A stretch of DNA of 59,985 nt, taken from sequence record OL539454.1; one strand, 5' to 3'. Shown in pieces: positions 24,375-53,993 of this stretch. Made by a program: the position numbers and the translations under genes. The notes beneath the pieces were generated by a model. The model was not told the origin of the DNA and did no database searches. It was given only the letters and a program-made list of their open reading frames with translations. Numbering within the stretch: the stretch's first letter is position 1; each line of letters begins with the position of its first letter. This DNA is from Escherichia phage vB_EcoS_OddieOddie.

Positions 24375-24577
24375 CGTCTTCTCCGGTACATGTATTGATC
24401 ATAAGTAGTCGCAATAATAGTGACTGGCCAGCAAGCGAGTATGCATAGAAGACTCACAATCTTCTCCCAACGTTTCTTATAGGCTAGCGCATAATCATAG
24501 TTATTCCAACAAAAGAAATAAGTCATTGCTGCAATCACAGCACCAATAATAAAATAAATAACTACATATTCATTCAT
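24371..24577 (-). CDS. small membrane protein
   Basis: 68-aa ORF with two hydrophobic segments and basic C-terminus. Confidence 0.45.
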   Translation of the reverse strand: MNEYVVIYFIIGAVIAAMTYFFCWNNYDYALAYKKRWEKIVSLLCILACWPVTIIATTYDQYMYRRRR

Positions 24578-24765
24578 TTAGTAAACTCCCATTCTAAAGT
24601 ATTACGATAGCTTGATGGTACATAACGCCCAGGACGAGGATCAAAACTTTTAACGGAAAATTCTAAAGTTGCTGCGCTATACAACTGAACCTTTTGCCCG
24701 TCCCACGGTCCACCAATTAGCTTAAAAGTCTGTCTGTAACCTTTTGCTGCTCTAGCCATATTCAC
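24574..24765 (-). CDS. hypothetical protein
   Basis: 63-aa ORF, coupled to neighbours. Confidence 0.4.
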   Translation of the reverse strand: MNMARAAKGYRQTFKLIGGPWDGQKVQLYSAATLEFSVKSFDPRPGRYVPSSYRNTLEWEFTK

Positions 24766-45034: not shown

Positions 45035-45503
45035 ATTCCTTATGTAATTCTAATCTTTTAGACTTAACCCAACTTTTAGCAGATTGTAAACCTTCAGGTG
45101 TAAAATCAAAATATTTTGATACCAAAACACCTCTTACGTGTAGGTTTGCATAATAAACTTGGATACCGTTATGTTTTGCAATGGTGACGCATTTAACTCC
45201 TGTTTTTGAGTCTTTACGAATAACCATATTATAATTGTTCTGTGAACGATCTGCCAGTCTAAGATTTTCTATTCTGTTATCGTCTTTAACTCCATTAATA
45301 TGATCTATCACCATCCCTTCAGGTATAGGTCCGTTAAAGTATTGCCATATTAACCTGTGAGCAAAATAAAACCTCTTATCAATCTTGCCTTGAATATAAC
45401 CGTCCTGACGTTTTGTACCAAATGGTCTTTTATTATAGCCGTTTTTATTTCTTTGAAACAATTTACCGTCTATATAAATAAAGCGTTCGTTTACATTGAT
45501 CAT
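45018..45503 (-). CDS. HNH homing endonuclease
   Basis: 161-aa ORF with DHINGVKDDNRIENLRL HNH motif and AP2-like C-terminal region; preceded by a terminator-like hairpin. Confidence 0.7.
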   Translation of the reverse strand: MINVNERFIYIDGKLFQRNKNGYNKRPFGTKRQDGYIQGKIDKRFYFAHRLIWQYFNGPIPEGMVIDHINGVKDDNRIENLRLADRSQNNYNMVIRKDSKTGVKCVTIAKHNGIQVYYANLHVRGVLVSKYFDFTPEGLQSAKSWVKSKRLELHKEFANHG

Positions 45504-45550
45504 ATCGACCTCCTTTATATTATTTTAATATGAAGTCAAATCAACCTCAA

Positions 45551-45583
45551 TAAAAAAGCGCAACGTTTTCACGCTGCGCTTAG
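45551..45583 (-). terminator. possible leftward terminator upstream of HNH gene
   Basis: AGCGCAACG-TTTTCAC-CGCTGCGCT imperfect hairpin (8 of 9 pairs) with A-run on plus side (T-run for leftward transcript). Confidence 0.4.
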
Positions 45584-46865: not shown

Positions 46866-46896
46866 AATAAAGGGCCTTTCGGCCCTTTATTTATTT
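46866..46896. terminator. bidirectional terminator
   Basis: AAGGGCC-TTTC-GGCCCTT hairpin with TATTTATTT downstream and A-run upstream; abuts the primase stop codon. Confidence 0.6.
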
Positions 46897-49227
46897 GCTT
46901 AAGTCTTTGAAAACACTCTCAATTGACTCGTCTATATACCATCCCAACCCCCTGAAATTACGCTTCAATGCATCCTCACGCGTAACCGGAACAAGCGCGC
47001 CCATGTCTACAAGTTGTTTGATAGTCAGGTCTGTCGCAGTACCTGCCCCCATCCTGTGATTCTTGAATGCTGCTAACCCGTAGGTTCTGCGTGTGATAGT
47101 TGCCTTCGGAATAATACCGTCAACTCGCAGCTCCTTACGATCACATGCAATTTTACCGCCAAGATAATCTTTGCAGACCTGACAGATAGCCTTCACACGC
47201 GTTTCATCATCACCGCCAATAGTACCTTTTTCCCATGCGTTGATCATGATATCCTGCCCATGCGTAACAAAATCTACCGCCCATTGCATGTGATTGGGCT
47301 GAACGACAGGATTGATCCAGTTTTCCCCCACTGCTAACAGGGAGGCAAGACGCAGAGCTTTAAGGTGTGCACGGTTCCACGGCTGACGAATTGCTTCGTC
47401 TTTAGTTGCGTTAATGTGTTCATCACATAACAAGTTAAACCCCCGTTCAATCCTTTCCGCTTCAGGGCTTAACTGGACGGTAACGGTCTGGAATTTTGCC
47501 ATTGTCACTAACGTGTGGTTAACGAGATGGCAGACCATGTCCTTTAATTGTTGCGGCATTGTGATTTCAGGATTTTCGTTTGCAGGAACACGATCCCCTT
47601 CATATTGCACAATGTGGAAACGGGACAAGAAACCGTCTTCCATCATTTCACGGGTTAACGCTTCAAAGAATGTGTCCGGTGTTGTTTCGCCCAGCACGCT
47701 GAACGCCACCCCTTCCATCGTTTTGGTATTGTTAGCCTTATCAGAATATCCGATACCGCCAACAACATCCATAGCACCAGATTTTTGATACACATCTGTG
47801 ATAGTTTGCTTCAGGGTGTAGTTTGCAGTGCCAGGTTGAGCTGTCGCCATACCTTTGATGGTTTTACCAAACTCACCGTTAATATTCACAAACGAAGTGT
47901 GATCCGCAAAACTTTTACGCAAGGCAGGACCGGAAGCATAGTTAGTCATATCTACAAACTCATGCACTTGCGGTAATTGCTCGCCTACTTGCTTACAGAT
48001 ATAACTAGGTCCAGCGTGAAGCATTTCTTTACCCACACCTGATCGAGCAATAAGCACAAAGTAACCGTTCAGCCCTGTGTTGGTGATAGTATTCCACACC
48101 TTGCCGCATACGCCGGATAAGAATGCTAACGATGCGGTGATTGCAATTTCTTTCACCGGACGCTGCGACGCCTTGTAGATATACTTCGCAAGCTCACCAG
48201 CAAGACCCGGCGGCCATTCAATAGCTGTTGCATCAATGGACGTGCTTTCAGCAACTACAATTTCACCGGACGGGCTGACTGTGGTTACAGGCATTTCCGT
48301 TACCTGCTGCATTGCACTGTGTGCGGCTTGCATACGGGCAGCGTAATCCCGCGCCAGCGCCGCTACGTTTTCCTGGGCAATACGCTCACGCTCCATGCGA
48401 CCGCGACACATACGCAAGCAACGGTCAATATGAACATTGTTCTTATTAGCCTTCTCACGTTTGCCCAGTGCACTGTAACGGAACAGACGGCGACATTGCT
48501 CATTACTTTCTGTGTAAAATGCATACATGGAAATAAGGGCAAGGTCTGCTTCAGACTGGGAAGGGAATCCCATTTCAACCCATTCGCCATTGAATAGGCG
48601 TGCATACTTATCCCCGTTGTCCGCTTCAAGTGCTCGCTGGTGAATAGTCGCATCGTCTTCTACCGGATCTTTTTCTACCAGTTCAATCTCATATGTCTTG
48701 CGCTGAAGATCAATTTCATTCACAAGCATAGTAAGATAATGATCACGTTCTGCAACTGGTTTGTTATAGACAGGATTACCCGTGCAGATAATAAAACGCT
48801 CCTGACTATAAACCTCGACACCATCACGTCGGCGACCTTTACCGATGTTCCCTCTTAACCACAGGTGGACGCCCAAGCCTGAGCGACTTACTTCGGTGTA
48901 AGTATCGAACGCAGTCATGATCTGTTCGAAGCGGCGCAACTGTTCCGGCGTCGTGTGCTTCTTGGGATCAGGCTCATTGGTTGCGTTCTTCACATCCAGG
49001 TCGATGCAGGTGAACGGGTCTTGCGCAGTAAGCACGAAGCCAATATAAGGTTTATTGAAATGAGCGGCGCAACCTTTAGCGGCTTCAAACGTCATAAGCA
49101 TATCCGGATCGGTAACGTCTGCCGCCATCAAACGTCCGATATCGTTGTCCCATACAAGCGGCTTTTTATCCGCATCGGCGACCGCCCATTGTGGAAAAGC
49201 TTTAATTTCAGCGGGAAACAGTTCCAT
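46891..49227 (-). CDS. primase-helicase (archaeo-eukaryotic primase-like N-terminus fused to ATPase)
   Basis: 778-aa ORF; primase-like SRSGLGVHLW motif; central P-loop-like ARSGVGKE. Confidence 0.6.
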   Translation of the reverse strand: MELFPAEIKAFPQWAVADADKKPLVWDNDIGRLMAADVTDPDMLMTFEAAKGCAAHFNKPYIGFVLTAQDPFTCIDLDVKNATNEPDPKKHTTPEQLRRFEQIMTAFDTYTEVSRSGLGVHLWLRGNIGKGRRRDGVEVYSQERFIICTGNPVYNKPVAERDHYLTMLVNEIDLQRKTYEIELVEKDPVEDDATIHQRALEADNGDKYARLFNGEWVEMGFPSQSEADLALISMYAFYTESNEQCRRLFRYSALGKREKANKNNVHIDRCLRMCRGRMERERIAQENVAALARDYAARMQAAHSAMQQVTEMPVTTVSPSGEIVVAESTSIDATAIEWPPGLAGELAKYIYKASQRPVKEIAITASLAFLSGVCGKVWNTITNTGLNGYFVLIARSGVGKEMLHAGPSYICKQVGEQLPQVHEFVDMTNYASGPALRKSFADHTSFVNINGEFGKTIKGMATAQPGTANYTLKQTITDVYQKSGAMDVVGGIGYSDKANNTKTMEGVAFSVLGETTPDTFFEALTREMMEDGFLSRFHIVQYEGDRVPANENPEITMPQQLKDMVCHLVNHTLVTMAKFQTVTVQLSPEAERIERGFNLLCDEHINATKDEAIRQPWNRAHLKALRLASLLAVGENWINPVVQPNHMQWAVDFVTHGQDIMINAWEKGTIGGDDETRVKAICQVCKDYLGGKIACDRKELRVDGIIPKATITRRTYGLAAFKNHRMGAGTATDLTIKQLVDMGALVPVTREDALKRNFRGLGWYIDESIESVFKDLSK

Positions 49228-49236
49228 TGCAGATCC

Positions 49237-49530
49237 TTACTTACAAGCTAGTTTTAACATGGATATAATTGCCGCCTTAATAGTATCAACTGTGTCCTGG
49301 ACTTCTTGCTTGGACGCAAATGTGTTAACATATTCCACGCTATCCAAAACTTTAATATATAAGATATAACCTTCACCTTCTACATGTTCAACAACATAAC
49401 CGTTGATGTCTAAAGACTTGCCAAAATAGTAACATGCAGATTTTGAATTAACCTTTTTCATAAAAGGATCAATTGTAGCCATAGATCTGTTTCCTCCGCC
49501 ATTCTTCGTATGCTGAATTATTTGCGTCAT
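49237..49530 (-). CDS. hypothetical protein
   Basis: 97-aa ORF. Confidence 0.4.
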   Translation of the reverse strand: MTQIIQHTKNGGGNRSMATIDPFMKKVNSKSACYYFGKSLDINGYVVEHVEGEGYILYIKVLDSVEYVNTFASKQEVQDTVDTIKAAIISMLKLACK

Positions 49531-49774
49531 ATACTTCGCAAGCGTCTTTCATGCTGTCATACAGTCCAAGGAAAGTTCGCCTTGTTTCTCCACCTGCATC
49601 CACCCATGTTAATCGGGCGAGCCATTTACCCGTTTTGTAATCGAAAGTAACGCCCTCACGCCCGCTCACATTCTCCCGAGGTACTCGAGGTTTCCGGCGT
49701 GCAAGCCCGCGCCCTTTGAAGTTGCTCCCCGGCACCGTGCGACACTTACGACCCACGACCAACCTCCGACACAA
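49469..49774 (-). CDS. AP2-domain-like DNA-binding protein
   Basis: Contains GVTFDYKTGKWLARLTWVDAGGETRRTFLGLYDSMKDACEVYDAN resembling AP2 fold; true start probably internal. Confidence 0.4.
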   Translation of the reverse strand: MCRRLVVGRKCRTVPGSNFKGRGLARRKPRVPRENVSGREGVTFDYKTGKWLARLTWVDAGGETRRTFLGLYDSMKDACEVYDANNSAYEEWRRKQIYGYN

Positions 49775-49961
49775 TCCGACCAGCGTGCAACATTAAGACA
49801 GGCTCTGCAACTTCGCGGACGTAAACGTACACATTAGCAATTTTAACTTCGCCAGGCAGCTTACCGCGCAGCGAACACAACTTGCGACGGCTAAGACCGA
49901 AGCGGTTTTCAATTTCTGATGTGGTTATGTATTTAAGATCAAATTCTTTTTGACAGTCCAT
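49746..49961 (-). CDS. hypothetical protein
   Basis: 71-aa ORF, first gene left of the AT-rich repeat region. Confidence 0.4.
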   Translation of the reverse strand: MDCQKEFDLKYITTSEIENRFGLSRRKLCSLRGKLPGEVKIANVYVYVREVAEPVLMLHAGRIVSEVGRGS

Positions 49962-50790
49962 ACCTACCTCCTAACAGCACTATACACAATCCATAGTAAT
50001 GCAGCCACAATTATTCCACCTGAAGTTATGATGTGAGCGGATTGTTAATATATAACCACATGTGAAGGAAAGTTTTGGGTAGGAATAGTTGGTGCTCCAC
50101 GGTTTGCGCAATGTGACCGAAAGTTTTGTGAGTTTTGCAAAGTTTTGCGAAGTTTTGTGGTGCCACTGTTGCTAAAAACTTTAATAAAAACAATAAGTTG
50201 GTGCAGTAAGTTTTTGCGTTTTGGGGTAAAACGCATTTTTTACCCTAACACCCAAATCCCGACTGTTAGTAAAAAACGTATATAAATCAATAGCATAGAT
50301 ACTAAATGAATAGTGGATGGAATGGGTAGAAATCCAAATGATGGAAGTGGAATAAATTATTCCTACTTGATAGAATAATGGAATCGGTACTCCAGAGCGC
50401 AAAAACCTAAAACTTTCAGTCAACAGGCTAAAAACGGATAGAAACTAAAAGTTAATAAGTAATACCATAAATATATATAAAATAAGGATTTATTATTAAT
50501 GTATATAGTACCTATTGGTATTATTTGAATGTTTTTGGGTCATTGTTAAAAAGTCCCAAAACTCACAAAAAGTGAAAGAATACAATTCGTGACAGGATTG
50601 TTAATGGAATATTGTGTATGGATATACAGTATTATTCCAGATTCCGGAATAATTGGAATAATGGAATAAATTATTGAACTATTGTGATCGGAAGGTATAT
50701 CAAGCTATAATGCGCTTAATCGCGGGATATTGGAGGAGGACTTTATTGCGCGGTTAACCGGACCAGTAGGAGGGCTGGCCCGGAAGTAGT
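49962..50790. promoter_or_regulatory. AT-rich repeat-dense noncoding region (candidate replication origin or regulatory hub)
   Basis: About 830 bp without a convincing ORF; contains tandem and dispersed short repeats. Confidence 0.5.
50121..50160. repeat. four tandem ~10-bp units containing AGTTTTG
   Basis: AAGTTTTGTG AGTTTTGCAA AGTTTTGCGA AGTTTTGTGG; further copies at 50071-50077 and inverted at 50555-50563. Confidence 0.7.
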
Positions 50791-51117
50791 TTAGAGTTGT
50801 ACAGGTGTGAAGTGGGCTAGCGTATCGTCGGACATGATACCCGACAGTTTTTCGTTTACCCAGTCGGACCAAATGCTATCCGGTTCCTGGCGGTGCACGA
50901 ACCAGATTTCGGATGTGCCTTCTTTGCGCATTGGTTGCACTTCTGCAAGGAACTTGTCCTGCATAAGGCGGGTGAAGCATACGCTGGTCATTGGAACCGG
51001 CTTTTCGTCTTTATTGTAATAAGGGACCAATATTTTATTCCCGAAGTCGGCAACTTCATAAACGGTTCCTTTTCGCAAGCCTCTGATGTCAGTGTAAGAG
51101 CGGATGAACGTTTTCAT
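50791..51117 (-). CDS. hypothetical protein
   Basis: 108-aa ORF. Confidence 0.45.
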   Translation of the reverse strand: MKTFIRSYTDIRGLRKGTVYEVADFGNKILVPYYNKDEKPVPMTSVCFTRLMQDKFLAEVQPMRKEGTSEIWFVHRQEPDSIWSDWVNEKLSGIMSDDTLAHFTPVQL

Positions 51118-51351
51118 GTTTATTTCCTTACGAACACAGAGCCGACGAATAATGTTGACTGAGTGGCAGCTTGCTCGATTAATTCGCCAACAAGCTGGGA
51201 CTGCGTTAGAGGCTTGAGGCCTTCTTTGGCGCGTGCTTCATTTACACGGCGCTGAAGGTCTTTTAGGTATTGAGTTGCGAAACTATCTAATTGCATTTTC
51301 TTATCCTTAGGGCTCCCGCAGAAGCCCGTCAGTGAACAGTGTGGTTATAGA

Positions 51352-51965
51352 TTATGCGTCCAGACCGTTATATTTGCGCCAGGCGTAGAACTGAATGGCT
51401 ACCGTAGTCCCGTTGTAAGAAGGCATTGCAGCTTTCATCTCTTTCAGCTCCGGCGTGCGGCCCAGTTCAGCTAAAAGTTTGTCGCCCATTGCCCACACTT
51501 CGGCAGTTTTTCCTTTCAGCGGCTTGCGAGCGCCATTTTTGAAATCACAGCGAGCAGCTTTTACATCCTGTTTTGGCGCGGCAGCTTTTGGCTCTTCAAT
51601 TTTGATTTCAGAAACCTGCGTGGCAGCTTTTGCGTGTTTCATATCTTTCTCTTCCTCCTGCTCCAGAGCTTCGAGGCAGCTTTTGACAATTTCCGGATTT
51701 ACCATCGGGCGCAGTACCGAGACGCTAGCAGCTGGCGCGGCGGTCGGTGCTGGGACTTTCTGCTCGGGCTTTTGAGCTTTTTCGTGATCGCGCAGCACCT
51801 GAAGCACTTCCTTCTCGATGATGTAAAAACCAATATCGTCCTGATGGATTAGCTGTTCGTGTGCATCGCGTGCAACCTGACCCCAGCGGGTCTTAAGGGC
51901 GCGGCGTGCATTCGTTTTCATGGTGTAGCGCATTTTGTCCTGTTCGCGGTGAGTTACTTTAGACA
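51352..51965 (-). CDS. hypothetical protein
   Basis: Longest ORF extends to 52011; ATG at 51965 has SD AGGAG; charged, helical. Confidence 0.45.
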
Positions 51966-52039
51966 TGGTATAGCTCCTTTCGTTAATATTAGTTTGCTTA
52001 TTACTGCCCACCGTAATGATGAGCAGTGTATAAGAAAAC

Positions 52040-52288
52040 TTATTGCACGATTGCTACGAAATCGGCGTTCGCGATACCCATACTTGCGAAAGCAACAATG
52101 CCATAGTCGGTGTCGTTGTCCGCGTTAAACGCTTTGAGGAACTGCTGTACCGCTGCTTTATGGTTAAGCGTTACGTCGATAGCATAGTCCCAGCTATAGA
52201 CTTTGCGCTTGCCAAAACCTTTAACTGCAATGCGTGCGCCTTTGGTGTTAGTTGGTGCCAAAAATTTGGTGACGATAGAAGTAGCCAT
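52040..52288 (-). CDS. hypothetical protein (first gene of leftward arm)
   Basis: 82-aa ORF with SD GAGGA. Confidence 0.45.
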   Translation of the reverse strand: MATSIVTKFLAPTNTKGARIAVKGFGKRKVYSWDYAIDVTLNHKAAVQQFLKAFNADNDTDYGIVAFASMGIANADFVAIVQ

Positions 52289-52751
52289 GATGTAATCCTC
52301 GTTTTGTTTAAGTTGACTTATTATTGCCCAGTCAGATCAACTAGGCAAGATATAAATCACTTAATTTGTACTAAATCGTATTCCTTGTAGATGTCGCTAA
52401 TGTACATATCGAACTGGCCCATTAAGAAGATTTCGGCCTCCTCCCAGCTTGGGGCAGATACATAACCAGCTATTTTACCGGACTCGAGTTCCACTAATTT
52501 GAATTCCATGATGCAACCCTTAATGTGGTTAAGCAGTATTGCTTTGTTGAAGTAATAATAGCCTTACATCGTGATATTGAATAGGCCAAAAGTGCTATTT
52601 TGATATTGTTTTGCATCTAATGAAAATTATGCTTGCCATGCATATTTAGCACTAATGGCCTAACTAACATCACATTATCTGGAGTATTCGCGCGGGCGCA
52701 CACATACATATAAAGCTGCCAAATATTTTTATAAAAAGATGCAAAAAGGTG

Positions 52752-52791
52752 TAGACACATGATCGGTCTAGCACTACTATATACACATACC
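52752..52791 (+). promoter_or_regulatory. candidate early promoter, copy 1
   Basis: TAGACA-CATGATCGGTCTAGCAC-TACTAT about 40 bp upstream of the 52829 gene. Confidence 0.4.
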
Positions 52792-52828
52792 GCAAGGGTA
52801 CTACAAATTAACTTAAAGGGTTCACATC

Positions 52829-53113
52829 ATGTCCATCGTTACTATGTCGTTCTTCGACCATTGCAATAACGAAAAACAAATTATCGTTAACCTGCAAAAA
52901 GGGTTGGTTGTTGCACGCAATGCTAACCGTCAATGCATCGCGCTAACCGATTTTGCTTTCCGCCTTAACGTGGACAACACCACCGCCAAAAATATCGTTC
53001 ACGATACAGCGATGGAAGCCGCTCATGCTGCGAAGGATAAAGGTATCCGTGCCGCACGCGAAATCATGCACAAAGCGCTCGGCATCACGTTCTTCATCGG
53101 CATTAAGGGGTAA
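52829..53113 (+). CDS. hypothetical early protein
   Basis: 94-aa ORF, first gene of rightward early arm. Confidence 0.45.
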   Translation: MSIVTMSFFDHCNNEKQIIVNLQKGLVVARNANRQCIALTDFAFRLNVDNTTAKNIVHDTAMEAAHAAKDKGIRAAREIMHKALGITFFIGIKG

Positions 53114-53259
53114 CTACTATGGCACGCAAATACACGCTTACACGCGCACAGCACGCGTTATTATTGCAGGTTATGCGCATGGAGTACGAAGAGACTACAT
53201 GGGCGCAGGCTATGCAAACTGGGCGCGAGTTCTACGCGCAATTAATAGCACAAAATGCC

Positions 53260-53300
53260 TAGACAACATGATCGGTCTGGTGGATACTACACACATCAAC
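53260..53300 (+). promoter_or_regulatory. candidate early promoter, copy 2
   Basis: TAGACAACATGATCGGTCTGG shares a 20-bp core with 52752-52772; upstream of ATG at 53321. Confidence 0.4.
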
Positions 53301-53320
53301 CAAACAACGGGGTAAACAAA

Positions 53321-53560
53321 ATGCGTAGTTTCAAATGTGTAAGCGTAAACGATAATGCTAAGGCTAGTGCTAAGGGTCTGTTCACAGTAGGTAAAGTGTA
53401 TGACTTCAACATGGAAAGTTATATACACATGACCCTCACGGGCGTAATGTTCGGCGACGTTGGTGCTGTACGCTGCGAGTTAAACAAGTACACGGAAAAG
53501 GAATATGCCCTTATCAGCCGCTACACGGGCGAGCCGTTAGCTGTGTTCCATGCAGCTTAA
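53321..53560 (+). CDS. hypothetical early protein
   Basis: 80 aa from the internal ATG of ORF 53255..53560, chosen because the repeated promoter-like element overlaps the longer 5' extension. Confidence 0.4.
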   Translation: MRSFKCVSVNDNAKASAKGLFTVGKVYDFNMESYIHMTLTGVMFGDVGAVRCELNKYTEKEYALISRYTGEPLAVFHAA

Positions 53561-53587
53561 GCTATAACGCACACAGCGCCACGCTAG

Positions 53588-53626
53588 CGAGCTAATGCAC
53601 AAAGGCAATGGTAATGCATTAGCTCG
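53588..53626. repeat. perfect 12-bp inverted repeat with 15-nt spacer
   Basis: CGAGCTAATGCA ... TGCATTAGCTCG. Confidence 0.7.
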
Positions 53627-53636
53627 GGCGAAACAG

Positions 53637-53706
53637 GCGCACAGCTTCGCGCACAGCTCGCACAGCGCACACCGACCCACGCAGGCCCAGCCGCGCGACC
53701 CGACCC
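53637..53706. repeat. GC-rich short tandem repeats
   Basis: GCGCACAGC-like units x3-4 followed by CGACCC x3. Confidence 0.65.
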
Positions 53707-53993
53707 ATCCTTTTCCAGGTACTTGGAGCGCTGGGCGTGCCCTGTCCATCCTGATAGTAAGTGCTTGTCTAAATCTCACCCATCACTTTACTATCCACCT
53801 ACATCCATGACCCCACCTACCTTCTTTTTGAATATATACAGCTCATTTCTTCTAAATATATGGATTTTGGTAGTAAATTCTGAGTCGTCAACGTATAATT
53901 CGTCTTGTAGCTTCTCCATAGCTACCATCTTTAAGCGATGCAACCAATTTCTAGTTAATCTCATCAGTTCCAGAGCATTTTCGGAGGTATTTA

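Follow-up and report, generated by a model that had tools for sequence, protein, structure and literature searches.

The largest noncoding gap in the genome of the E. coli phage vB_EcoS_OddieOddie, a Seuratvirus (Queuovirinae), is probably (at a probability of roughly 0.65) a replication origin joined with the regulatory region of the replication operon. The origin would be of the iteron type, served by a PriRep-like primase-helicase and an accessory DNA-binding protein, with autoregulation built in. The gap spans positions 49962-50790 of the window (the whole stretch of DNA analyzed, 59,985 nucleotides; record OL539454.1), which is 1.4% of the genome length, and has a GC content of 35.2% compared to 44.5% genome-wide. 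The replication operon begins just downstream of it, and the 735 bp between the gap and the primase start codon contain three small genes. Small early-type genes lie on one side of the gap and replication genes on the other. The original prediction of an 830-bp AT-rich noncoding region inside the leftward arm was accurate. Its place in that arm is confirmed by the flanking genes, which are both on the - strand, and its noncoding nature by an alignment with Salmonella phage STP-SP5 (74% identity), in which the indels separating the conserved blocks (10, 21, 11, and 2 nt) do not keep to multiples of three, as well as by the absence of annotation in most relatives (none in the 96-98% identical phages). 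Open reading frames of up to 80 aa within the gap were rejected as genes on the same two grounds, the indels and the missing annotation. The elements of the gap are:

49962-50790 (no strand): whole noncoding region, predicted replication origin and replication-operon control region, based on its size as the largest gap, its GC content, and the indels.
50010-50037 (-): candidate sigma-70 promoter of the replication operon (CTCACA, 16 nt, then TG-n-AATAAT), by consensus match.
50033-50049 (+): copy 1 of GTGAGCGGATTGTTAAT, which overlaps the candidate - strand promoter at its -35; the second, copy 2, lies at 50589-50605.
50071-50077 (+): fifth direct AGTTTTG copy.
50120-50159 (+): tandem array of four AGTTTTG with a 9-10 bp period, of the iteron class linked to helicase allele A; kept in STP-SP5.
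50204-50265 (no strand): central GTTTTTG/CGTTTTG copies and a GGGG...CCC hairpin-forming element; this G-run/C-run element has the same relative position in all phage types.
50215-50235 (+): terminator-like hairpin.
50348-50384 (no strand): cassette-W repeats, palindrome TGGAATAAATTATTCC and GAATAATGGAAT; kept in STP-SP5, absent in S- and C-type phages.
50400-50406 and 50408-50414 (-): class-2 (AGTTTTG-type) iterons CAAAAAC and TAAAACT, left of the core; CTATAAAC/TATAAACT in the same columns of allele-B phages.
50410-50424: universally conserved AAACTTTCAGTCAAC, directly after the left class-2 iterons.
50467-50524 (no strand): invariant AT-rich core, candidate DNA-unwinding element, from duplex stability and conservation.
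50531-50572 (no strand): class-2 iterons right of the core, an inverted pair of GTTTTTG (+, 50531-50537) and CAAAACT (-, 50557-50563) adjoined by CACAAAAAG; swapped in register for AGTTTATA / TATAAAT / AATAAAC in allele-B phages.
50631-50671 (no strand): right-hand TGGAATAAT cluster, consisting of ATTATTCCA, its inverted partner, and then three direct copies with an 8-9 bp period.
50682-50711 (+): promoter-like site (TTGTGA, 18 nt, TATAAT), conserved in all types.

Short repeats are clustered in the gap beyond chance, as judged from enrichment counts and shuffles. AGTTTTG starts at 50071, 50122, 50131, 50141, and 50151 on the + strand (spacing 51, 9, 10, and 10) and, together with its inverted copy right of the core, accounts for 6 of the 17 copies in the genome. 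The only two exact genomic copies of GGATTGTTAAT are both in the gap (50039-50049 and 50595-50605), each inside a 17-nt repeat, GTGA(G/C)(C/A)GGATTGTTAAT. GGAATAAT/ATTATTCC was found at 50010, 50356, 50631, 50646, and 50655, with five of the ten genomic copies of GGAATAAT inside the gap, and the palindrome GGAATAAATTATTCC at 50349-50363. All of these repeats had been predicted from the sequence, to within 2 nt of where they lie, and they are strongly enriched. When the region was shuffled 2000 times with dinucleotides preserved, one 7-mer reached seven copies in 38 shuffles and two different 7-mers did so in a single shuffle. No clustering of the repeats was found at other promoter regions of the genome, so no regulon is apparent. 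The repeats were also followed into related genomes: in the STP-SP5 alignment they fall within conserved blocks while the spacers diverge, and in phages with the alternative helicase allele (B, below) those of the AGTTTTG type are replaced in register. Copy 1 of GTGAGCGGATTGTTAAT is perfectly conserved in STP-SP5 and copy 2 is degraded (GTGGCAGAAATGTTAAT). The original description of the repeats as iteron-like thus holds insofar as they are real and clustered, but they do not form one iteron set, since the gap contains at least two independently assorting families.

No other duplex in the 60-kb genome is as unstable as the core, whichever window size between 40 and 800 bp is used (z about 4.5), and the least stable 100 bp are at 50437-50537. 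The core is nearly identical in every iteron and cassette type, with the flanking DNA swapped on either side, and has class-2 iterons on the left (two, both - strand) and on the right (one + and one -). These properties make 50467-50524 a candidate for an easily melted DNA-unwinding element. The cumulative GC skew reaches its minimum near 50 kb, but this signal is confounded by the G-rich repeats and by transcription direction and was left out of the evidence. A cluster of DnaA boxes (TTATNCACA), as sought for a host DnaA-dependent origin, was absent from the gap (one 1-mismatch site, compared to 1.5 expected), and sites for IHF and Fis and 13-mer sites showed no enrichment there.

Both repeat families co-vary with genes of the adjacent operon, which include the following:

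46891-49227 (-): primase-helicase, 778 aa, with an AEP primase-polymerase, an NrS-1-type helix bundle, a DUF3987 helicase, and a C-terminal region.
49237-49482 (-): 81-aa protein, third W-cassette gene, annotated in RCIP0359 and absent in STP-SP5.
49469-49756 (-): 95-aa protein whose N-terminal tail is basic and disordered, followed by a DNA-binding domain of AP2/ERF fold (aa 35-92).
49746-49961 (-): 71-aa protein with a winged helix (phrog_11967, Seurat61 family), which may read the cassette repeats.

The class-2 repeats follow the helicase/C-terminal part of the primase-helicase (encoded by 46891 to about 48330), which exists as two alleles, A and B. Between alleles, residues 1-300 are about 100% identical and residues 300-778 are 38-82% identical, with the last ~150 aa forming the most diverged block (38-49%). 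AGTTTTG/GTTTTTG was found only in the gaps of phages with allele A, and AGTTTAT/GTTTATA takes its place in the gaps of allele-B phages; compared name by name, iteron type and helicase allele agreed in all 34 related phage records (18/18 for A, 16/16 for B). Measured from the core, the motifs of both kinds coincide in position and orientation (-73, -65, +58, +74/84, +93, and about -200). When four complete genomes were scanned, the A-versus-B partition of the iterons recurred only at 46.8-48.4 kb, in the helicase part, and at 50401-50575, in the origin flanks, apart from one 40-nt window that appeared at the most permissive setting. The segment at 52.35-53.95 kb groups the opposite way, which rules out genome-wide clade structure as the source of the association. 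Between the helicase part and the origin flanks lie the N-terminal part of the primase, with 94-96% nucleotide identity in every E. coli-phage comparator whether A or B, and a freely exchanged cassette; recombination therefore appears to have taken place between the two co-varying segments, which we take as support for an origin. The A/B split nevertheless goes back to what is essentially a single event in evolution, STP-SP5 being a diverged lineage of A, and because the two segments are 2-3 kb apart, physical linkage alone could maintain the association. The apparent match between iteron and initiator specificity is correlative only. The Hafnia phage yong3 carries B-like GTTTAT(A/G)G repeats and a helicase part that is no closer to A than to B, an observation that speaks neither for nor against an origin.

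Outside the helicase part, the primase domain matches the SaPI5 PriRep5 (PDB 7OLA; phmmer E 7.9e-11, query residues 61-264) and also the NrS-1 primase. The PriRep5 match is limited to this domain, and the DUF3987 helicase part has no detectable similarity to PriRep5. A search of the last 160 aa against Pfam and PDB sequences gave no winged-helix match, and no match of any kind.

The second repeat family follows the exchangeable gene cassette between the gap and the primase, being TGGAATAAT here and CACTATA or CCCTATA elsewhere. Its assortment does not depend on the helicase allele: CACTATA is seen with either A or B, CCCTATA with B, and TGGAATAAT with A. Since a helicase part that is 99.6% identical accompanies TGGAATAAT in some phages and CACTATA in others, the primase-helicase was ruled out as reader of the cassette repeats. 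The right-hand TGGAATAAT cluster, in variable block 2 (50585-50667), precedes the promoter-like site of the + strand and is present in W-type phages, in STP-SP5, and, as a recombinant block, in Dru_SM1. A TGGAATAAT repeat also forms the extended -10 of the candidate - strand promoter, both hexamers of which are retained in STP-SP5, and the analogous operon promoter of SA126VB overlaps CACTAT iterons. The promoter of the replication operon is thus likely to overlap cassette repeats.

Every cassette encodes a Cox/Xis/MerR-type winged-helix protein, and the 71-aa protein is the only family common to all cassettes, with its gene found within about 750 bp upstream of the primase-helicase in 34 of 34 Seuratvirus records as well as in Vid5 and NP1. 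Its AlphaFold 2 model (pLDDT 84; E11-13, H14-21, H25-31, E38-41, E44-48, H49-59) has the beta-alpha-alpha-beta-beta topology of a winged helix and is nearest in fold to BldC, RacA, the RdfS excisionase, Rpp, and MerR-family DNA-binding domains (weak matches, E 0.15-1, TM about 0.5), and one or two of ten homologues gave marginal matches to Pfam HTH_17 and MerR. The recognition helix varies by repeat type (SRRKLCSLR, SRYKLCRNR, and SKFK(L/M)SR(M/I)R). Between this phage and STP-SP5, both of W type, the helix is identical and the protein is 82% identical overall (91% over a 64-residue tblastn match). The repeats are retained although the AP2 proteins of the two phages share only 26% identity. 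Depositors have labelled homologues of the 71-aa protein 'regulatory protein cox' in one case and 'redirecting packaging protein' in another. The 81-aa open reading frame was rejected as the Seurat61 homologue, which is the 71-aa frame, and no family match was found for it.

The 95-aa protein, found in W-type phages only and related to the C-terminus of an HNH-like protein of yong3, matches Pfam AP2 (PF00847) with an E of 2.5e-4 but at 21.7 bits, below the curated cut-off of 33.3, so that its sequence-level membership is marginal. Its model has the AP2 fold, in which a three-stranded sheet packs against a helix, and gave Foldseek probabilities of 1.00 to AtERF1 (1gcc; rmsd 2.1 A) and WRI1 (7wq5). 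An AP2-like domain that seemed by eye to lie at the C-terminus of phrog_27223 (250-270 aa, in CAjan/CSP1-type phages) was discarded at an hhalign probability of 0.1%. Deep searches for homologues of the 71-aa and 95-aa proteins returned close relatives only, and both structure models therefore rest on shallow alignments.

The anatomy of the region, the instability and invariance of its core, the two independent patterns of repeat-protein co-variation, and the folds of the two small proteins were all obtained by computation. Building on these, we propose that the primase-helicase would bind the (A/G)GTTTT(G/T) iterons on both sides of the core, and those further left including the tandem array, and would then melt the core, load itself there, and prime synthesis, so that replication would start within 49962-50790. 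The 71-aa protein would bind the second family, TGGAATAAT and possibly GTGAGCGGATTGTTAAT, and the AP2-fold protein may contribute. This second system would shape the origin complex and, because the cassette repeats overlap the operon promoter, would also autoregulate the replication genes. We infer both that these proteins bind the repeats at all and which protein is paired with which repeat. Of the two functions originally suggested for the region, an origin is thus favored by comparative evidence (the invariant and least stable core, the AGTTTTG repeats matched in register to the helicase allele in 34/34 records, a split found at essentially no other locus, and the co-variation of the cassette repeats), and a regulatory array is probably also present, given the overlap of cassette repeats with the candidate operon promoter.

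A purely transcriptional control region for the early-to-middle switch, made up of a terminator for early genes upstream, promoters of the replication operon and of a rightward transcript, and operator arrays for the phage's own Cox/MerR-like and AP2-type regulators, with replication starting elsewhere or without a fixed origin (e.g., by recombination-dependent initiation), appears unlikely but is the foremost of the rival explanations. Promoter-like sites on both strands, some of them conserved (TTGTGA-N18-TATAAT), the overlap of the operon promoter with cassette repeats here and in SA126VB, and the position of the gap between small early-type genes and replication genes would all fit such a region. 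So would the excisionase/MerR-type fold of the 71-aa protein and the cox label given to a homologue, as Cox/Xis/MerR-type winged-helix proteins are typically transcription or recombination factors, and these phages have recombination functions (in CAjan, an exonuclease and a 'DNA repair and recombination protein'). However, the number of promoter-like sites in the gap is not above that in shuffles (5 compared to 3.4 +/- 1.7), the repeats cluster at no other promoter region, and transcription alone leaves unexplained why the invariant center is the most meltable DNA of the genome and why the class-2 sites are re-coded in register with the helicase/C-terminal allele, the sole other locus with that partition. 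Noncoding RNAs, with the repeats as RNA structural or target-mimic elements, are a far less probable explanation. The conserved + strand promoter-like site precedes a + strand gene in STP-SP5, Dru_SM1, and SLUR76, but here it faces the 3' end of a - strand gene with no + strand gene after it, and the + strand terminator-like hairpin could be placed in the same scheme. Against this, the hairpin is not conserved in STP-SP5, for which reason it was dismissed as a functional terminator; neither an Rfam scan of the gap (E up to 5) nor a tRNA scan gave a match; and the left half of the gap is swapped wholesale between phages, leaving in common only short DNA motifs in both orientations, which fits protein-binding sites on duplex DNA rather than RNA.

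The mosaic structure of the locus could instead mean that it is a recombination hotspot or mosaic junction in which the repeats are incidental, as remnants or targets of homing endonucleases or as boundaries of module exchange. Its breakpoints are sharp (49227/8, 50400-50403, 50584/5, and 50667/8), HNH endonuclease genes are inserted nearby in five relatives (CAjan, SLUR76, Dru_SM1, SA126VB, and yong3), and the AP2-fold frame resembles the C-terminus of an HNH-like protein. We nevertheless regard this explanation as improbable: the repeats stand in conserved blocks between diverged spacers of a 74%-identical alignment, every allele type has the same layout of iteron clusters, central element, conserved linker, invariant AT core, and flanking inverted iterons, and the in-register re-coding of the sites points to selection on binding sites rather than to debris. 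A DNA packaging (pac/cos) or centromere-like site, with the winged-helix protein as a terminase-associated or partition factor, is more improbable still, about on a par with noncoding RNA. Pac sites typically have arrays of repeats within AT-rich DNA, one homologue of the 71-aa protein bears the packaging label, and its model weakly matches the PICI Rpp protein 6hn7; yet the terminase genes sit some 10 kb off, at the conventional start of the genome, all complete relatives begin at terS, the repeats co-vary with replication genes and not with terminase, and this virulent siphovirus has no partition genes in its annotation tables.

An origin at this site would be of a classical kind, as iterons beside an AT-rich region next to an initiator gene. 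A close parallel is found in the SaPIs (SaPI1, SaPIbov1, and SaPI5), in which the C-terminal winged helix of Rep reads iterons flanking an AT-rich region (PMC9371898). Shared features are the fused AEP primase-helicase with its PriRep5-like primase domain, short iterons of 6-8 nt in opposite orientations on both sides of the AT-rich region, an iteron sequence matched to the initiator-helicase allele, and the lack of DnaA boxes. The phage differs in being a virulent 60-kb element rather than a satellite, in the DUF3987 helicase part, and in its second repeat family, which assorts independently and goes with an accessory winged-helix cassette. In addition, the SaPI origin lies immediately downstream of rep, whereas the putative phage origin is upstream of the operon in the 830-bp gap, and a C-terminal winged helix in the phage protein is at most putative. 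Lambdoid ori/O modules likewise have iterons adjoining an AT-rich region, and their initiator and iterons co-vary and are exchangeable among mosaic relatives (e.g., PMC7466680). Their origin is inside the O gene, however, and O recruits the host DnaB via P, while the predicted phage origin is intergenic and would use the phage's own primase-helicase.

Satellite P4 offers another comparison, as the C-terminal domain of its alpha primase-helicase binds repeated octamers in two clusters (ori and crr), which resemble the left array and the core-flanking sites of the gap, and a small regulator, Cnr, modulates the system. Unlike the AEP primase here, that of alpha is of the Toprim type; P4 has unrelated iterons (TGTTCACC) and two sites separated by kilobases, and no exchangeable cassette is known in it. 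For the accessory system, the size and fold of the 71-aa protein and the 8-10 bp-spaced direct repeats overlapping a promoter recall P2 Cox, lambda Xis, and Streptomyces BldC, small winged-helix proteins that form head-to-tail polymers on tandem direct repeats, the kind of site bound by BldC and phage excisionases. These act in excision or transcription and not in a replication module, and no sequence-level membership of the 71-aa protein among them was found.

The proposed origin may go one step further and require two keys, in that the primase-helicase would read GTTTT(T/G) (allele A) or GTTTAT (allele B), a cassette protein would read the second family, and initiation would need both. We advance this extension as a tentative and rather doubtful one; in it, the cassette repeats would likely be read by the Cox/Xis-like winged-helix protein with the aid of AP2-fold or phrog_27223 partners. 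A literature search found no paper on the region or on a Seuratvirus/Nonagvirus origin, and to our knowledge no replication origin has been described in the Queuovirinae. These phages have 7-deazaguanine-modified DNA, are common among E. coli phages, and are represented in the BASEL reference collection. The origin model, with two predicted determinants of specificity and natural swaps of alleles, bears on how an AEP primase-helicase of the NrS-1/PriRep class locates its start site in a full-size virulent phage, on how initiator-iteron specificity evolves via single-position re-coding, and on why the locus is a mosaic hotspot, and it supplies a part list for engineering such phages or phage-dependent replicons. 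If two keys are indeed needed, swaps of cassette and allele would divide co-infecting phages, otherwise about 95% identical, into replication 'specificity groups' comparable to the incompatibility groups of plasmids or the immunity types of lambdoid phages, and selection to escape or avoid cross-use of the replication machinery would drive the mosaicism of the locus.

The noncoding gap at 49962-50790 is best explained, from the comparisons described here, as an iteron-type replication origin in which two recognition systems co-evolve and autoregulation is built in (probability roughly 0.65). The window spans all or nearly all of the genome of a Seuratvirus, an E. coli siphovirus in the subfamily Queuovirinae, and it starts, as do all complete relatives, at the small terminase gene. 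Its genes run rightward to ~24 kb, leftward from ~24 to 52.7 kb and then rightward to the end. The gap lies within the leftward block and is the longest noncoding stretch of the genome. Over 49000-52000, identity to phages RCIP0359 and KS_W4 is ~96%, and over the gap itself it is 98-99%. The gap yielded no Rfam match, no tRNA and no enrichment of host DnaA, IHF or Fis sites, and a literature search on it found no publication.

Features of the gap and its surroundings
46891-49227, - strand: 778-aa primase-helicase, last gene of the operon opened by the 71-aa ORF
49746-49961, - strand: 71-aa ORF, first gene of this short operon; its start codon bounds the gap
50037-50010, - strand: candidate operon promoter (CTCACA, 16 nt, TG-n-AATAAT), its -10 being a TGGAATAAT repeat
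~50400-50466 and 50525-50584: core-flanking DNA, two versions among relatives
50410-50424: short linker AAACTTTCAGTCAAC, present in all relatives
50467-50524: AT-rich core, present in all relatives
50585-50667: variable block
50682-50711, + strand: promoter-like site TTGTGA-N18-TATAAT, conserved in all relatives
50791-51117, - strand: 108-aa ORF; its stop codon bounds the gap

Every sequence feature listed in the original prediction was recovered. AGTTTTG starts on the + strand at 50071, 50122, 50131, 50141 and 50151, the last four forming a tandem array with 9-10 bp spacing, and one inverted copy lies at 50557. GGATTGTTAAT occurs exactly twice genome-wide (50039 and 50595), the gap holds five copies of GGAATAAT/ATTATTCC and the palindrome GGAATAAATTATTCC at 50349-50363, and its GC content is 35% vs 44.5% for the genome. 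With 1.4% of the genome, the gap contains half of the GGAATAAT and a third of the AGTTTTG copies; two 7-mer families at the observed multiplicity arose in 1/2000 dinucleotide-preserving shuffles. The gap is 74% identical to that of Salmonella phage STP-SP5. Because the repeats fall in conserved blocks, and the diverged spacers between them carry indels of 10, 21, 11 and 2 nt, this DNA is noncoding, with the repeats themselves under selection. As a separate observation, the 11 nt TGTGAGCGGAT at 50032-50042, within GTGAGCGGATTGTTAAT (50033-50049), also occur in the E. coli lac operator O1 (AATTGTGAGCGGATAACAATT). The TTGTTA that comes next is TAACAA of the operator in reverse complement. The element overlaps the -35 of the candidate operon promoter; the resemblance is probably coincidental.

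Comparison of 34 related records with a gap at the same place revealed a modular organization. The left 440 bp (49962 to ~50400) have been exchanged wholesale between phage groups, along with the genes between gap and primase-helicase (the cassette, types W, S and C). At all calculation windows of 40-800 bp, the least stable duplex of the 60-kb genome is formed by the 100 bp that surround the core (50437-50537; z ~4.5); next in rank are 45258-45558, close to a short gap between genes upstream of 45.6 kb, and 24545-24605, where the two arms converge.

Repeat motifs were counted in the gaps of twelve phages. AGTTTTG/GTTTTTG is present in the window, STP-SP5, CSP1, WildeMaa, SA126VB and Dru_SM1 and absent from KurtStettler, SeppeHuegi, CAjan, Seurat (save one stray GTTTTTG), SLUR76 and Hafnia phage yong3; the latter six carry AGTTTAT/GTTTATA, which the former lack. 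This split coincides with two primase-helicase alleles, A and B, which are ~100% identical over residues 1-300 (AEP primase and helix bundle) and 38-82% identical over residues 300-778 (DUF3987 helicase and C-terminal region), lowest in the last 150 residues. Matched name by name, a-type flanks occur in 18/18 allele-A records and b-type flanks in 16/16 allele-B records, an association between loci 2-3 kb apart that goes back to few independent evolutionary events. Measured from the core, both motifs lie at the same places and point the same way (-73 and -65 reverse; +58 forward; +74/+84 and +93 reverse; ~-200 forward), and the sites have therefore been re-coded in place, essentially from GTTTT(T/G) to GTTTAT.

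Clade structure was examined by scanning the window against four complete genomes (two A, two B). The window grouped with both A against both B phages only at 46.8-48.4 kb (helicase part) and 50401-50575 (core flanks), except for one 40-nt scan window at the loosest setting, and sided with the B phages at 52.35-53.95 kb. Recombination has thus scrambled the rest of the genome, with helicase part and core flanks staying paired across the conserved primase N-terminal segment and the exchangeable cassette that lie between them. At 52351-53950, around the divergent switch between the leftward and rightward arms, the window is close to CAjan and KurtStettler and differs from WildeMaa and SA126VB; since this reverses the primase-helicase grouping, it marks another mosaic module boundary.

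In the twelve gaps, a second repeat family tracks the cassette and not the helicase allele, so that the two repeat systems assort independently.

Cassette types, their repeats and the predicted recognition helix of the 71-aa protein
W (window group, STP-SP5): TGGAATAAT repeats; SRRKLCSLR
S (with allele A or allele B): CACTATA/ATAGTG; SKFK(L/M)SR(M/I)R
C (CAjan, Seurat): CCCTATA, ~12 copies; SRYKLCRNR
Dru_SM1: recombinant, S cassette plus a right-hand TGGAATAAT block
yong3: helix GRCTLTRIR

The 71-aa protein belongs to phrog_11967, the Seurat61 family. In 34/34 Seuratvirus records, as well as Vid5 and NP1, a member of this family is encoded no more than ~750 bp upstream of the gene for the primase-helicase. 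The AlphaFold model of the 71-aa protein is a winged helix (pLDDT 84). Among solved structures it comes closest to BldC, RacA, RdfS excisionase, MerR-family domains and a PICI Rpp protein, in each case with a weak E-value, as expected at 70 residues. Window and STP-SP5 have the same repeats and an identical predicted recognition helix. A second, 95-aa ORF combines a basic disordered tail with an AP2/ERF fold (Foldseek probability 1.00 to 1gcc and 7wq5). Its identity to the counterpart in STP-SP5 is only 26%, and it resembles the C-terminus of the yong3 HNH-like protein; it may therefore be an accessory factor or the remnant of an HNH/homing endonuclease gene. C and S cassettes encode a 250-270-aa protein, phrog_27223, in its place; an AP2-like C-terminus there was an impression without hhalign support.

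Several relatives show further variation, cited by our record handles (L numbers). At the same position, yong3 (L015, 4007-4713) has another type of repeat, (A/G)GTTTAT(A/G)G in tandem and joined to motifs that resemble CCCCTATA, and its cassette encodes the divergent winged-helix recognition helix and the HNH-like protein with the AP2-like C-terminus. Phages with allele A and an S cassette carry a AAAGTTTTTG-TAAT-CGCAAAAC-CTT-CGCAAAAC cluster immediately before the first gene of the cassette (WildeMaa L012, 1478-1517; CSP1 L006, 3138-3206), annotated as a 44-aa ORF in WildeMaa and as an N-terminal extension, from a TTG codon, of a 271-aa ORF in CSP1; these coding annotations are probably wrong. 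HNH/homing endonuclease genes have repeatedly inserted near the replication module of relatives (CAjan L005, 4216-4698; SLUR76 L014, 2186-2515; Dru_SM1 L013, 1-433; SA126VB L019, 46190-46702 and 42641-43147), and the window has none. TTGTGA-N18-TATAAT precedes a + strand gene in STP-SP5 (L004, 4283-4759), Dru_SM1 (L013, 2240-2569) and SLUR76 (L014, 2186-2515), an HNH endonuclease in the last. In the stretch 50682-50790 of the window, the site points at the 3' end of the 108-aa gene on the - strand, and behind it come a Shine-Dalgarno-like GGAGGAGG, an ORF of 3 codons and a hairpin (50758-50783); it could give an antisense or leader transcript.

The main rival, that the gap is purely a transcriptional control region, draws on the overlap of the cassette repeats with the candidate operon promoter in the window and of CACTAT iterons with a depositor-annotated promoter in SA126VB; promoter calls were consensus matches whose number did not exceed shuffle expectation. 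This overlap makes autoregulation of the replication genes by the cassette-repeat system likely. The original prediction had left the choice between origin and regulatory array open: modular layout and repeat co-variation argue for the origin, the regulatory array becomes a second function of the same region, and purely transcriptional control is unlikely. SaPI origins are served by a self-loading initiator-helicase, which uses its C-terminal winged helix to read iterons of 5-6 nt and needs neither DnaA nor a loader; each side of an AT-rich region has at least two iterons that point in opposite directions (PMC9371898). The layout of the gap matches this description. The AEP primase domain of the primase-helicase matches SaPI5 PriRep5 (7OLA, E 8e-11) and the NrS-1 primase-polymerase; sequence searches with its C-terminus gave no match. 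Under the origin reading, the Seuratvirus primase-helicase would bind the extra arrays on the left as well as the GTTTT(T/G) sites around the core; having melted the core, it would load itself and start priming. The second repeat family would be bound by a protein of the cassette, the winged helix being the most parsimonious candidate.

In the sister genus Nonagvirus, JenP2 has a gap of similar size (~830 bp; L008, 1-826, record 51501-52326) that contains an AT-rich stretch and TTTTCGC/TCACCGAAAA repeats. It lies ~3 kb upstream of the JenP2 primase, from which nine small genes separate it, and may be an equivalent origin. The gap described here would be the first origin proposed for the Queuovirinae, and its pairing of helicase-linked with cassette-linked repeats is unusual.
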